Part shown: in pieces, positions 51,788 to 58,293 of the stretch
Layout: each line of letters starts with the position of its first letter
Numbering within the stretch: position 1 is the stretch's first letter
Source of the DNA: Archaeoglobales archaeon
GTDB taxonomy: Archaea > Halobacteriota > Archaeoglobi > Archaeoglobales > Archaeoglobaceae
Length of the DNA: 64,000 bases
Direction: 5' to 3'
NCBI GenBank assembly: GCA_030055525.1
Contig: JASFYJ010000001.1
Coordinates: 26,616 to 90,615, forward strand
Notes under the pieces: model-generated
What the model saw: only the letters and a program-made list of their open reading frames with translations
Database searches by the model: none
Told to the model about the DNA's origin: nothing
Program-made: the position numbers and the translations under genes

Positions 51788-52054
51788 GTGAAGGTAAGGA
51801 TAGAGTTTTATGCAACTTTGCGGGAAAAGTTTGGAAGGGCGATAGAGATAGAGTGTGATGGGACCCTTTATGGAGCTTTGAAAGCAGCTGCTGAAAAGCT
51901 TGGTAAAGATTTTGAGAAGGAAGTTTTTAAGGATGACAAGATAAGAGATGATAGGATAATACTCGTGAACGGTAGAAATATAAAAGATGAAAAGATTGAA
52001 AATCTGAATGAAAATTCAAAGATTGCGATTTTCCCACCGGTGGCTGGAGGATGA
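51788..52054 (+). CDS. moaD: MoaD/ThiS-family ubiquitin-like small protein (C-terminal GG)
   Basis: 88 aa, ending ...FPPVAGG. The stop overlaps the next start. Confidence 0.75.
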   Translation: MKVRIEFYATLREKFGRAIEIECDGTLYGALKAAAEKLGKDFEKEVFKDDKIRDDRIILVNGRNIKDEKIENLNENSKIAIFPPVAGG

Positions 52055-53151
52055 AAGTTCAAATTGAGGTTACTACGAAATGCAATTTAAGTTGCGAATA
52101 CTGTTTCAGAACTGGAGAAAACGAGTTAAGTTTGGAGATAGTTGAAAAGTTGCGGGGTTTTGATGAATACGTAGTTTACGGCTATGGTGAACCATTTATG
52201 CACAAAAATATAAAAAAGATTCTTGAAAATTTAGATGGCCGGATAATTTTGAGTACAAATGGTATGTTTGATGTTTCAAATATAGCTGATTTTGCAGACG
52301 TTGTTGCCGTATCTCTTGACGTTGACAGCTCTTTAAGGAAGGGTTTTATTTACGACCTTGCTATTAAAAATTTGAAAAAGCTTGAGGGGAAAGGATTAGC
52401 CCAGATCGTTTTAACCAGAGAAAACATTTTCAGGATCAAAGATTTCTTAAGTGAGGTTGCGAGGTTTGGAGATGTTATGCTCACAAACGTCGTTGCGAAA
52501 GATGAACGGATATACGAAAAGGCTCTTTACTTCGAGATTAGTAGAAAAGTTTACGAGATTTGTAAAAACCTTGAAGAGGACTTCCTACTGAAAGTTTTAA
52601 GTGATTTTGAGTATAGAAGAAAATTTAGTATGATGCTGGAGGACATCTATGGTTGCGGCTATTCTTTAAATTTGCATCGAATAGTTGATGAAAAGAGAAG
52701 GGGTGCTGTTGCGGAGAAAGCTGAGAGATTTATTGAAGAACTCGAAGAAGTCGTCAAAATTTACGGGTCGGAGCTAATAAAACCTGAATTTTTTGGAGAC
52801 TCTAATACAAGAGAGTGCCCCTACCGGAGTTCGATATTTATTAGAGCAGATGGATCTGTTGCACCATGCATGAGTTTTGCTTACGATCATGAAGAGTTCG
52901 TAAATTCTCATCAAAAAACTGTAAAGAGTTACCTGGTTGGAAACTTGTACCATGAGGATTTTGATGAAATATACAGCAGACTTAGAGATTTTGAAAACTT
53001 TAGAAGCTCAATTAAATCCTTTCCATGGTGTTCTGATTGTCCCTATGTTGTTGGCTGTTGGTATGCGACAAGAAACATCGATTGTTACAACAATTTTCCA
53101 TCTTGTAGTGAATGTCTCTACAGTGCAAGAATTGCAAGATGCTTTTTATGA
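52051..53151 (+). CDS. radical SAM / SPASM-domain protein (putative tungsten-enzyme maturase)
   Basis: CNLSCEYC (Cx3Cx2C) at the N-terminus. The Cys-rich C-terminus (CPYRS...APCMSF...CSDCPYVVGC...CSEC) is typical of SPASM. Confidence 0.7.
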   Translation: MKVQIEVTTKCNLSCEYCFRTGENELSLEIVEKLRGFDEYVVYGYGEPFMHKNIKKILENLDGRIILSTNGMFDVSNIADFADVVAVSLDVDSSLRKGFIYDLAIKNLKKLEGKGLAQIVLTRENIFRIKDFLSEVARFGDVMLTNVVAKDERIYEKALYFEISRKVYEICKNLEEDFLLKVLSDFEYRRKFSMMLEDIYGCGYSLNLHRIVDEKRRGAVAEKAERFIEELEEVVKIYGSELIKPEFFGDSNTRECPYRSSIFIRADGSVAPCMSFAYDHEEFVNSHQKTVKSYLVGNLYHEDFDEIYSRLRDFENFRSSIKSFPWCSDCPYVVGCWYATRNIDCYNNFPSCSECLYSARIARCFL

Positions 53152-55563: not shown

Positions 55564-55638
55564 AGCGGGGTGGGGTAGTCAGGTGATCCCGGCGGGCTCA
55601 TAACCCGCAGATCCGTGGTTCAAATCCACGCCCCGCTA
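55564..55638 (+). tRNA. initiator tRNA-Met (anticodon CAT)
   Basis: A1:U72 acceptor pair (AGCGGGG/CCCCGCU), discriminator A, three G:C pairs closing the anticodon loop (GCGGG-CUCAUAA-CCCGC), and T arm CGUGG-UUCAAAU-CCACG. Confidence 0.9.
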
Positions 55639-55711: not shown

Positions 55712-56977
55712 ATGATTAAAACCAAAGAATTTGAAGAATGTAAGAGAGCTCTAATATCAGCTGTACTCTCAGGCTACAGCTGCTCTTCGAGGTTTGGAGA
55801 ATATCTTTTCTCAGATCCGAAGCTTTTAGTTATTGAAGAGGCTGAACAGTTGGGTTATGAGGAGGATTACTTTAGAGATGTTTACATGCGGAGACTGCAG
55901 GAAGTTTTCAAAAAAGCCGCTGAAAAACTAAAAAGGACTCCTTATACTAGGAGAGTTTCTATACCCATCTGGAGGCCTGAAGACCATTTATCTAAAAATC
56001 CGCCGGCAATTACAGAGATATCTTTTTTATACGACGAAAAGCTGCATTTAACCGCTTATCTAAGATCTCTTGACGTTTTCAACTATTTTGAACACAACTT
56101 CGATTTTTTATCCTTTATTCTCGAGAAAATGAGCTTGGAGACAGAGCTGGAAGCTGGAAGTATAGCTATGCTCGTAGCTGTGCCTCACATATACAGAAGA
56201 GATTTAAAGAGGGCTGAAAAAGAGGCAAAACCTATTGAAGAGTTTTTTGGATACACTGAGTTGGCGACACATATAGTGGATGATTACATTTCAAGTGCCT
56301 GGCATTCGGCTTTGGAAACAATTTACAGAATGGGTAAAAAAAAGAGAACAGAATGGGATATATTTAGCGGTCAGGAAACTTCAAATTTTGTTCATAGGTT
56401 GTTTATAGAAGTCAGAAAACCGGAGGAAAACAGGATCCATGACAAAGCACCGTTTACAGAGAAATATGGTCTTGAGTATGCACACAGCTACGTTATCGGT
56501 GGTGAGGGGATCGACGTTGAACTGGAGCGTAACATACTGAAGGATGGAGAAGAGTATAGCTACGCTGAAAGGGCGAGATATTGTCTAAAGGATGAATTTA
56601 AAGTTGATCAGCTCTTTAAGGCTGTAAAGAAGCTGAAAGAAAATTGCAGAAGAGATTGCTATGTTGCAATTTCAAGACCTTGGGATATCGAAAGCTCTGA
56701 ACCACCCTGCTTGAGAGGATATCATTTTGTTAAAAAAAATGCCAAGATACTTGGCATATTTTACATGCGCTCCAACGACGCTTATGGGGCGATGCATGCA
56801 AATATGTTTGCATTCTCTTTACTAACCAAATACGCCGCTGAAGCCTGCGGGATTAGAGATTATGAGTACAATCATTTTGCAGTGGATGCACACATCTATT
56901 CTGGGTTTATGAAAGCTGTCGAAGACATTCTCTACCCTAAATCACCAAAATTTACAGATTTTATGAAAACTACTTGA
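55712..56977 (+). CDS. tandem thymidylate-synthase-fold protein (N-terminal degenerate half plus C-terminal Cys-bearing half)
   Basis: The C-terminal half has RRDCYVAISRPWD...EPPCLRGYHF...YMRSNDAYGAMHANMFAF...VDAHIY. The N-terminal half has RRVSIPIWRPED...NPPAITEISF...YLRSLDVFNYFEHNFDF...VPHIY, with Ala replacing the nucleophile Cys. Confidence 0.65.
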   Translation: MIKTKEFEECKRALISAVLSGYSCSSRFGEYLFSDPKLLVIEEAEQLGYEEDYFRDVYMRRLQEVFKKAAEKLKRTPYTRRVSIPIWRPEDHLSKNPPAITEISFLYDEKLHLTAYLRSLDVFNYFEHNFDFLSFILEKMSLETELEAGSIAMLVAVPHIYRRDLKRAEKEAKPIEEFFGYTELATHIVDDYISSAWHSALETIYRMGKKKRTEWDIFSGQETSNFVHRLFIEVRKPEENRIHDKAPFTEKYGLEYAHSYVIGGEGIDVELERNILKDGEEYSYAERARYCLKDEFKVDQLFKAVKKLKENCRRDCYVAISRPWDIESSEPPCLRGYHFVKKNAKILGIFYMRSNDAYGAMHANMFAFSLLTKYAAEACGIRDYEYNHFAVDAHIYSGFMKAVEDILYPKSPKFTDFMKTT

Positions 56978-57626
56978 AGTAAGCTTTTATATCTATTTCA
57001 TCTATACATCCTTCGTACGTTATTCTTCCGGATGAAAGGATGTAACATCTCTCTGCAATATCACTTGCAAGCTGCATATTTTGCTCAACCATCAGAATCG
57101 AAACGTCTTTGGATATGGAATTTATAACTTCTGCCAAACTCTCAACTACTATCGGTGCCAAACCCATTGAAGGTTCATCTAGAAGTAAAAGTTCTGGTTT
57201 TAGCAATAAAGCTCTTGCTATCGCAAGCATCTGCTGCTCTCCACCGCTTAGGTTTTTAGCCTTTTCCCTCCTTTTGCTCCTGAGCTGGGGAAAAAGCTCG
57301 TAAGCTAGGTTTGTATCTCTGTTTACAATTGAGAGGTTATCTTCAACACTCAACCTTGAGAAGATCCTTCTTCCCTCCGGGCAGATTGCAATTCCTCTCT
57401 TTATTCTCTCGTAAGGCTTCAGTCTGTTAAGGTTGAATCCTTTAAATTCTATATCTCCCTTGTAGCTCACAAGCCCACAAATGGCTTTTAACAAAGTTGT
57501 CTTCCCAGCCCCGTTTGGTCCGAGAACAGCCACTCTTTCTCCCTTTTCAATTTTCAGCGAAACATTGTGAAGTACTTCCAGCTTGTCGTAGTAAGCATTT
57601 AAGTTACTTACAGAGAGAATTGGCAT
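56970..57626 (-). CDS. livF: branched-chain amino acid ABC transporter ATP-binding protein (LivF-type)
   Basis: GPNGAGKTT, LSGGEQQ and LLLDEPS motifs. I prefer the ATG at 57626. Confidence 0.85.
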   Translation of the reverse strand: MPILSVSNLNAYYDKLEVLHNVSLKIEKGERVAVLGPNGAGKTTLLKAICGLVSYKGDIEFKGFNLNRLKPYERIKRGIAICPEGRRIFSRLSVEDNLSIVNRDTNLAYELFPQLRSKRREKAKNLSGGEQQMLAIARALLLKPELLLLDEPSMGLAPIVVESLAEVINSISKDVSILMVEQNMQLASDIAERCYILSSGRITYEGCIDEIDIKAYFK

Positions 57627-58293
57627 ACTTTCTTCCGAGGTAAGCTTCTCTAACTTCTCTGCTTTCAAATACATCTTCCGGCAAACCATCGAAGATTATC
57701 TTACCCGCGTTTAAAACGAGCACTCTTTCAGCTACACCAAAAAGCTCGGCTAATCTGTGTTCGATTATTATCATTGCCATCTTTCCATCTAAGCTTTGAA
57801 TTGTTTGAGCAAGCTGGGCAGAATCTTGAAAGTCCAATCCAGAGAACGGTTCATCGAGTAGAAGGATCTTTGGATCTAAACATAAAGCCATCGCAATACT
57901 CAATCTCCTCATCTCACCCTGTGAGAGATTCTTAGCAATTTCGTTTCTTTTTGCCCATAGATTCATTTCTTTCAGAATCTCAACATCTCCTCCCGCAGCT
58001 TCGATGTTTTGCGCTACTGTAAGGTTTTCAAAAAGTTTTATTATCTGAAAAGTTCTTACAATCCCGATTTTCGCTATCCAGCTTGGTTTTTTAGCTGTTA
58101 TTCGGACTTCTTTATATATAATTTCACCGCTGTCGGGTTTTAAAAAGCCAGAAATTATATTGAATAGAGTAGTTTTTCCTGCCCCGTTTGGACCTATGAT
58201 ACCAACTTTTTCACCGTTTTTTACATCAAAGCTTATATTTGTGAGTACCTGGAAGTTCCCGAACCTTTTTGAGACCTCTGCAACCTTTAGCAT
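57604..58293 (-). CDS. livG: branched-chain amino acid ABC transporter ATP-binding protein (LivG-type)
   Basis: GPNGAGKTT, LSQGEMRRL and LLLDEPFSGL motifs. Confidence 0.85.
   Translation of the reverse strand: MLKVAEVSKRFGNFQVLTNISFDVKNGEKVGIIGPNGAGKTTLFNIISGFLKPDSGEIIYKEVRITAKKPSWIAKIGIVRTFQIIKLFENLTVAQNIEAAGGDVEILKEMNLWAKRNEIAKNLSQGEMRRLSIAMALCLDPKILLLDEPFSGLDFQDSAQLAQTIQSLDGKMAMIIIEHRLAELFGVAERVLVLNAGKIIFDGLPEDVFESREVREAYLGRKYANSLCK

Follow-up and report, generated by a model that had tools for sequence, protein, structure and literature searches.

A stretch of 64,000 nucleotides from an Archaeoglobales archaeon (assembly GCA_030055525.1, contig JASFYJ010000001.1, positions 26,616 to 90,615; this whole stretch is the window below) encodes a protein in which two domains of the thymidylate synthase (TS) family ThyA are joined in a single chain. 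The open reading frame (ORF), a tandem ThyA-ThyA fusion, is complete and runs on the forward strand from 55712 to 56977, with an ATG start, 421 codons and a TGA stop. The N-terminal half (N-half, aa 1-176; 55712..56239) is a trimmed, catalytically degenerate ThyA-fold domain, as documented by Pfam, profile matches to the Protein Data Bank (PDB), AlphaFold2 and substitution rates, while the C-terminal half (C-half, aa 177-421; 56240..56974) is recognised by Pfam, the NCBIfam model TIGR03283 and TS matches in the PDB as a complete methanogen-type ThyA domain with the active site. We consider it likely that the protein is a single-chain pseudo-heterodimeric ThyA-type thymidylate synthase with one active site, that of the C-half, completed in trans by arginines of the N-half. 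A first-pass annotation of the sequence had already proposed a single-chain pseudo-heterodimer with one catalytic site, and this proposal gains support from the two ThyA matches, the fold of the N-half, the conservation of the fusion and the asymmetric conservation of the two halves, from which we infer the donation in trans.

The history and the workings of such an enzyme can be pictured as follows. An ancestral archaeal (methanogen-type) thyA would have been duplicated in tandem and the copies then fused, so that the two halves would fold against each other in one chain as two ThyA subunits pair. The only working active site would be that of the C-half, with Cys333 as the nucleophile, Arg353, Ser354 and Asp356 beside it, Asn364 for uracil and His394 and Tyr396 for the deoxyribose. 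The N-half would have lost its nucleophile (Ala99) and about 48 residues, including a segment that bears invariant motifs in the C-half, and would be maintained as the partner surface that the obligate dimer requires, from where Arg80 and Arg81 would act in trans and complete the pocket of the C-half that binds the phosphate. Such an enzyme would amount to a half-the-sites dimer that nature has locked covalently and left with one site.

That one chain holds two ThyA-type halves is confirmed far beyond chance. Against the Pfam family PF00303 (Thymidylat_synt), whose gathering cutoff is 24.3 bits, the whole 421-aa protein scores 95.1 bits in two stretches. The Pfam check for two matches in one chain that the first-pass annotation had recommended gives 43.6 bits (E 2.6e-11, profile 111-220) for the N-half alone (aa 1-177) and 54.6 bits (E 1.1e-14, profile 94-223) for the C-half alone; both halves thus pass separately, which bears out the claim that the product contains the ThyA core motif series twice, and every motif quoted for it is found in the translation. 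The halves are also related to each other: BLASTP aligns them at 25% identity over 110 aa (E 9e-5), and a profile-profile alignment of the N-half family with the C-half family by hhalign extends end to end over 175 columns, with a probability of 98.4% and an E-value of 7e-14. By itself, the N-half family profile matches 90 distinct solved TS sequences. The start codon is backed by near-invariant M1 and I2 in the family alignment.

The best NCBIfam model is TIGR03283 (thy_syn_methano), which covers the C-half over positions 5-195 of 201 (101.7 bits) and the N-half over positions 79-200. Since the score of the whole protein, 137.8 bits in two stretches, lies below the equivalog cutoff of 174.55, the protein is classed as a divergent relative or architectural variant and not as an equivalog member. 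Its nearest single-domain relatives (209-217 aa; those with names are ThyAs of Methanosphaera and Hydrothermarchaeota) match the C-half only.

Modelled alone with AlphaFold2, the N-half reaches a predicted local distance difference test score (pLDDT) of 91.4 and a predicted template modelling score (pTM) of 0.87. When this model was compared by Foldseek with solved ThyA folds, 396 matches at E <= 1e-3 were obtained; the template modelling score normalised to the length of the N-half (TMq) is 0.74-0.84, a range that spans TS, the cytidine monophosphate (CMP) hydroxymethylase MilA and a phage deoxycytidine monophosphate (dCMP) hydroxylase; TMq is 0.84 to 9iqu and 0.76 to the E. coli TS 1tys. The first-pass annotation had named a single ThyA match together with a differently folded N-half as an outcome that would undo its proposal, and the two Pfam matches and the ThyA-fold model rule this out. 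The best PDB match of the N-half, by sequence profile (E 1.5e-9) as well as by fold, is 9iqu / 9iqc, the flavin-dependent dCMP hydroxylase of phage HY126, a compact protein of 217-234 aa; minimal ThyA folds of a size like that of the N-half therefore occur as stand-alone enzymes.

The annotation had further held that the fold of the N-half has lost the greater share of its N-terminal portion, and here it has to be corrected. The N-terminal helix and strands are retained, since aa 1-45 align with aa 187-235 of the C-half by hhalign, and a 'GExYxxR' motif of the N-half (Y58 invariant, R61 near-invariant) aligns with 'YSYAERAR' of the C-half (Y284, R287). The N-half is short of about 48 residues of the fold, and the hhalign gaps place most of this loss in an internal segment that corresponds to C-half aa ~243-282 (56438..56557, forward strand). 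This segment, delimited by the gaps, by invariant columns and by secondary structure, is present in the C-half only and contains a helix (250-262) and the motif HDKAPF, in which A246, P247 and F248 are invariant and H243, D244 and K245 are conserved to at least 90%. Descent of the N-half from a pre-existing ThyA-like subfamily devoid of the cysteine was considered and found unsupported: Cys is retained in every one of the domains with the best matches to the N-half profile.

The fused form is not peculiar to the window. Among 5.8 billion proteins a homology search identified 109 clusters of homologues, full length (about 411-456 aa) except for two that are truncated, and drawn from independent sources (NCBI isolates, JGI, ENA, Logan). 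The named carriers are Archaeoglobus fulgidus, A. neptunius, A. veneficus, A. sulfaticallidus, Geoglobus acetivorans and G. ahangari, together with many metagenome-assembled genomes (MAGs) of Archaeoglobaceae. In a scan of one genome per species the uninterrupted gene was found in 34 genomes, all of them Archaeoglobi, the closest being a MAG at 93% identity. The annotation had allowed that the fusion might be a sequencing or assembly join, that is, an artefact of two adjacent thyA genes, and a single case lends this some colour: in one NCBI MAG of the closest cluster the orthologue is called as two proteins of 67 aa and 347 aa (P0284/P0285) on the same 19-kb contig. However, the split lies within the N-half, away from the domain boundary, which suggests a local frameshift confined to this assembly. 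The conservation of the full-length gene across 109 clusters and 34 genomes shows that the fusion is no assembly join; the artefact retains a negligible probability and can be regarded as refuted.

More distant tandem versions also exist. Three of 457-493 aa were recovered in the same search, the sole named one from Ca. Alkanophagales, and a cluster look-up links this group to Ca. Alkanophaga volatiphilum. An exhaustive HMMER search with the family profile against 1.84 billion representatives gave only six proteins at E <= 1e-30. It also led to a very divergent tandem ThyA of 414 aa in a MAG of Ca. Aenigmatarchaeota, P0175 (RLJ01209.1), which is annotated as 'hypothetical protein' and is collinear with the family over both halves (hhalign 98.7%, 24% identity). 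The phyletic mapping called for at the outset thus places the fused form in Archaeoglobi wherever carriers are named, with divergent versions in Ca. Alkanophaga and in one Aenigmatarchaeota MAG. The polarity, a dead N-half with the arginine pair followed by a live C-half, is repeated in the Ca. Alkanophaga-type proteins and in P0175. The latter bears Asp at the position of Asn364 (Asn177 in E. coli TS), a cytosine-specific signature, and, judging from this residue, may be a single-chain dCMP-modifying enzyme of a DPANN archaeon.

The asymmetry between the halves is best seen at the level of single residues, which were mapped by HMMER alignments to numbered TS structures (Ec marks E. coli numbering) and whose conservation was counted across 40 diverse family members, to which all fractions below refer. 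The catalytic Ec Cys146 corresponds to Cys333 in the C-half (TGC, 56708..56710, within PPCL; 40/40) and to Ala99 in the N-half (GCA, 56006..56008), where the column reads A37/S3 and Cys is found in 0/40. Both codons agree with the earlier claim that Ala99 replaces the nucleophile while Cys333 is present; a nucleophile is therefore available in the C-half and lacking in the N-half taken alone. The other catalytic positions of the C-half are Arg353-Ser354-Asn355-Asp356 (56768..56779; Ec Arg166/Ser167/Asp169), Asn364 (56801..56803; Ec Asn177, which recognises uracil, PMC6514825) and His394-Ile-Tyr396 (56891..56899; Ec His207/Tyr209), and R353, S354, D356, N364, H394 and Y396 are each conserved in 40/40. 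The C-half thus has the uracil-type Asn as well as the sugar-binding His and Tyr. In the N-half, Ec Arg166/Ser167/Asp169 map to R118/S119/D121 (the RSxD motif begins with Arg118-Ser119-Leu120 at 56063..56071), Ec Asn177 to N129 and Ec His207/Tyr209 to His159-Ile-Tyr161 (56186..56194). Here the Arg and the Ser are invariant despite the dead site, as are His159 and Tyr161, whereas N129 is relaxed (N32/D7/V1). At the position of Ec Asp205 the C-half has D37/N3, whereas the N-half has hydrophobic residues there and at the position of Ec Gln165.

The arginine pairs show the opposite pattern. In canonical TS the pair of one subunit binds the phosphate of deoxyuridine monophosphate (dUMP) in the site of the other subunit (PMC6514825; PMC5981203), and the E. 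coli enzyme, in which the partner supplies Arg126'/Arg127', requires its four-Arg cluster as well as Asn177 (PMC6514825). Arg80-Arg81 of the N-half (AGG AGA, 55949..55954), the equivalents of Ec Arg126/Arg127, which align with the SRR of E. faecalis TS, are both invariant (40/40), so that the annotation was right in stating that the N-half keeps its pair. The pair of the C-half, Arg313-Arg314 (56648..56653, aligned by HMMER to the SRR of L. casei TS), would face the dead site; R314 is found in 40/40, but R313 varies (R28/S4/T3/A2/D2/K1). If the N-half donates its arginines to the live site, an invariant pair in a half that has no nucleophile is to be expected, and the partial relaxation of the C-half pair would be explained by its facing a dead one. 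Of the four-Arg phosphate cluster, R353 is invariant in the C-half and R80/R81 are invariant in the N-half; the position of the C-half that aligns with Ec Arg21 is E214.

The N-half is the more variable of the two, with a mean pairwise identity of 0.455 vs 0.643 for the C-half. Between the window and its 93% identical relative (L001), however, the halves hardly differ in the ratio of non-synonymous to synonymous substitution rates (dN/dS), with 0.066 in the N-half and 0.063 in the C-half. Purifying selection is thus equally strong on both, and the N-half is therefore a maintained component and no relic.

What the N-half is maintained for could extend beyond the interface, since the residues kept in the dead pocket seem to exceed the obvious needs of a scaffold: they may be structural, or the pocket may bind a phosphate-bearing ligand as a regulatory site. 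In the latter case the pocket would bind dUMP, deoxythymidine monophosphate (dTMP), another nucleotide or part of the pterin cofactor without catalysis and act allosterically on the site of the C-half, a fixed version of the inter-subunit communication of homodimeric TS. The invariance of R118, S119, H159, Y161 and Y58 speaks for it, as do R27 (33/40), which aligns with the DRTG-type Arg21 position, the invariant R314 (Ec Arg127), which is expected to point into the N-half pocket, and the selection on the N-half, as strong as that on the C-half. However, both the base-recognising Asn and R313 are relaxed, hydrophobic residues stand in for Asp205 and Gln165, the pocket has lost part of its wall with the ~48 residues, and the retained residues lie on core strands where they could serve folding or the interface. 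On balance, an allosteric pocket is a tentative idea that we think doubtful, though worth keeping in mind.

With regard to the arrangement of the halves, the full-length AlphaFold2 model is one compact unit (mean pLDDT 94.0, pTM 0.93). The linker that joins the halves (aa ~165-186; 56204..56269) is ordered, with a pLDDT of 94-98, and conserved, with E177 and G180 near-invariant. Foldseek comparison of this model with the PDB found ThyA-fold proteins only, each of which spans about half of the chain (TMq about 0.4), and solved structures therefore include no tandem ThyA. The high pTM, the logic of conservation and the membership in a family of obligate dimers suggest that the halves pack within the chain like a ThyA dimer. 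Alternatively, they could pair between chains, the N-half of one with the C-half of another in a domain-swapped fashion, to give a dimer or oligomer with two active sites, and a run on the monomer is compatible with swapping. Yet the pTM of 0.93 and the ordered, well-conserved linker indicate a confident intrachain arrangement, and the analogous tandem thymidine kinases are monomeric pseudodimers (PMC9190010), which makes swapping improbable.

Several points weigh against an enzyme with one live site completed by the N-half. Its dimer-like packing, like the nearness of R80/R81 to the pocket around Cys333, is deduced and not read directly from the model. The equivalent of Ec Arg21 in the live site cannot be assigned from the sequence, the candidates being K211 or R229. 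The dead site retains the invariant R118, S119, H159, Y161 and Y58 and, in 33/40, R27, and the R314 that is expected to face it is found in 40/40. The TIGR03283 score falls short of the equivalog cutoff (137.8 against 174.55), and enzymology is lacking for the tandem protein and largely so for methanogen-type ThyA (PMC9012536). Finally, the lack of thyX or of a second thyA in Archaeoglobi genomes is taken from the literature.

As to the reaction, the invariance of N364, H394 and Y396 indicates dUMP rather than dCMP as the substrate, and the protein most likely converts dUMP to dTMP, a building block of DNA. The Asp that replaces Asn177 in cytosine-type enzymes is absent, Asn364 being invariant throughout the Archaeoglobi and Alkanophaga family. 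The question of the substrate, which the first-pass annotation had left open together with that of the one-carbon (C1) donor, has therefore narrowed. Archaeoglobus uses tetrahydromethanopterin (H4MPT), and because this is the carrier of Archaeoglobi the C1 donor is probably methylene-H4MPT. The biochemistry of methanogen-type ThyA is poorly known, H4MPT being the presumed carrier (PMC9012536). Two studies of comparative genomics assign A. fulgidus, like the methanogens, to the ThyA route for dTMP (PMC2690999; PMC5654409). A motif scan of the 64-kb window for the ThyX signature RHRxxS...SxRY found none.

A different activity within the ThyA family has nevertheless to be weighed. The protein could modify C5 of another pyrimidine, as a hydroxymethylase or on a ribonucleotide or an RNA- or tRNA-related substrate, and be no thymidylate synthase at all. 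Its location next to an initiator-type tRNA-Met and queD/queE might suggest an RNA- or tRNA-related substrate, but 33 of 34 related loci lack queD/queE beside the gene, and a tRNA-Met lies next to it in 3 of the 22 scanned. The top fold matches include the CMP hydroxymethylase MilA and the phage dCMP hydroxylase, and the divergent relative P0175 has Asp at the Asn177 position; in the Archaeoglobi family, by contrast, the uracil-type Asn364 and His394/Tyr396 are invariant. A score below the TIGR03283 cutoff and the scant biochemistry of methanogen-type ThyA (PMC9012536) leave further room for such an activity. However, the nearest named single-domain relatives, from Methanosphaera and Hydrothermarchaeota, are annotated as thymidylate synthase, and the route to dTMP assigned to A. 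fulgidus in the literature requires a ThyA homologue. Taken together, another C5-modifying activity appears very improbable.

The tandem protein can be set beside several known systems. The methanogen or archaeal type of ThyA (TIGR03283; homodimers of ~209-217 aa) provides the closest single-domain proteins among the 1.84 billion representatives, and the C-half covers nearly its whole profile (5-195 of 201) with all catalytic motifs; the difference is that here two copies are fused, the first of them trimmed and without nucleophile. With the canonical homodimeric ThyA of E. coli and L. casei the protein shares the fold, PPC, RSxD, Asn177, DxHxY and the trans-acting arginine pair, but its dead half is ~48 residues shorter and its cofactor would probably be H4MPT and not folate. 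A functional parallel is found in engineered TS heterodimers (wild type/R126E-R127E), in which, according to a review (PMC5981203, citing Maley 1995 and Falk 2016 as sources), exactly one functional site is formed from the Cys of one subunit and the arginine pair of the other. These are artificial and non-covalent, whereas the asymmetry of the tandem ThyA is natural, genetically fixed, covalent and lineage-wide.

A parallel of another kind is offered by thymidine kinases, whose TK1 fold is unrelated to the ThyA fold. The tandem thymidine kinases of Trypanosoma brucei and Giardia intestinalis also serve dTMP supply and also carry two homologous halves per chain, of which one is active, in a monomeric pseudodimer (PMC9190010). 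They belong to eukaryotic parasites and catalyse another reaction, so that the analogy is one of evolutionary logic alone.

Literature searches for a tandem, fused or single-chain ThyA found no published description and likewise no published assay of the tandem protein. A tandem ThyA with one dead half thus seems to be undescribed, while its catalytic domain is a known methanogen-type ThyA. Database labels on the tandem proteins read 'thymidylate synthase' or 'hypothetical protein' and leave the architecture unmentioned. Few enzymes are as highly conserved or as thoroughly studied as ThyA, for which a symmetric homodimer is taken to be obligatory; a possible alternation of its two sites in catalysis (half-the-sites reactivity) and the communication between its subunits have been debated for decades and studied by means of laboriously prepared, unstable mixed heterodimers. 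A review explicitly wishes for covalently locked TS heterodimers (PMC5981203). If the proposed architecture is correct, a natural ThyA with one live and one dead site, kept throughout a lineage, would show that one site per dimer suffices in vivo. It would also provide a stable asymmetric TS from a cultured hyperthermophile lineage for structural and nuclear magnetic resonance work, and a handle on the uncharacterised H4MPT-dependent thymidylate synthases of archaea. A bolder extension, which we put forward as speculative and on present evidence unlikely to hold in full, is that the sole TS of Archaeoglobi is a naturally 'frozen' half-the-sites enzyme, in which the TS dimer was locked covalently, one site killed and the phosphate- and sugar-binding residues of the dead pocket (R118, S119, H159, Y161, R314') kept as a ligand-sensing allosteric site, and that this solution is met again in other archaea, most of them from thermophilic settings (Ca. 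Alkanophaga, Aenigmatarchaeota), including a cytosine-type (Asp177-like) version.

The genes around the tandem thyA encode a SPASM radical-SAM protein, a GT4 glycosyltransferase, QueD (PTPS family), a QueE-like radical-SAM protein, the initiator-type tRNA-Met and a Liv-type ABC transporter. The tRNA-Met(CAT) gene (55564-55638) lies 73 nt upstream of the tandem ORF on the same strand. In its product the acceptor end is A1:U72 and the anticodon stem is closed by GGG/CCC, both features being hallmarks of archaeal initiator tRNAs. Between this gene and the ATG of the tandem thyA there are A-T-rich, TATA-like stretches (TATTTTAAA, AAATTTAAG). The first-pass annotation was right about the adjacency of the initiator tRNA and queD/queE, which it thought perhaps meaningful. 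Its meaning, however, does not survive comparison: when the neighbours in the window were searched by tblastn against the 34 related loci, queD/queE were found only beside the gene of the 93% identical L001 (1/34) and livFG downstream in 4/34, and the tRNA-Met was upstream in three of the 22 loci scanned for it (L001, L002, L011). A functional tie to queD/queE and the initiator tRNA was accordingly rejected, and since the neighbourhood is not conserved no functional signal comes from it. The tandem thyA and a convergent livF-like ABC ATPase gene (56970-57689, reverse strand) share 8 nt at their 3' ends (56970-56977).

Other proteins of 430-520 aa that were matched in the exhaustive search were considered as further tandem ThyAs and rejected; P0175 alone is tandem, and the others have an MtrA-like + ThyA-like + DUF4346 architecture or contain an intein. 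The first type combines MtrA-like (PF04208), ThyA-like (PF00303) and PterinBD-DUF4346 (PF14251) domains in 426-521 aa (P0116, P0126, P0127, P0138, P0143, P0149, P0204, P0219, P0238 and P0244); P0117, P0173 and P0253 are ThyA-like + DUF4346 proteins without the MtrA part, and P0129 is a member of 837 aa. By the exhaustive search, both halves of the tandem protein count this ThyA-like domain among their nearest relatives; these multidomain proteins differ from the tandem protein in having a single such domain, with its Cys (PPCL), between unrelated flanking domains. This domain is thereby physically fused to H4MPT- and pterin-related ones. A full-text literature search for 'DUF4346' found no papers. 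The intein is that of P0243, a 499-aa ThyA homologue with an intein splicing domain (PF14890) inside its ThyA domain.

Further upstream in the window, the SPASM-domain radical-SAM protein (366 aa; 52051-53151, forward strand) directly follows an 88-aa ORF (51788-52054, forward strand) that ends in GG. By its C-terminus the small protein resembles ThiS/MoaD-type or ubiquitin-like proteins, and the two may form a modifier or peptide-maturation pair.

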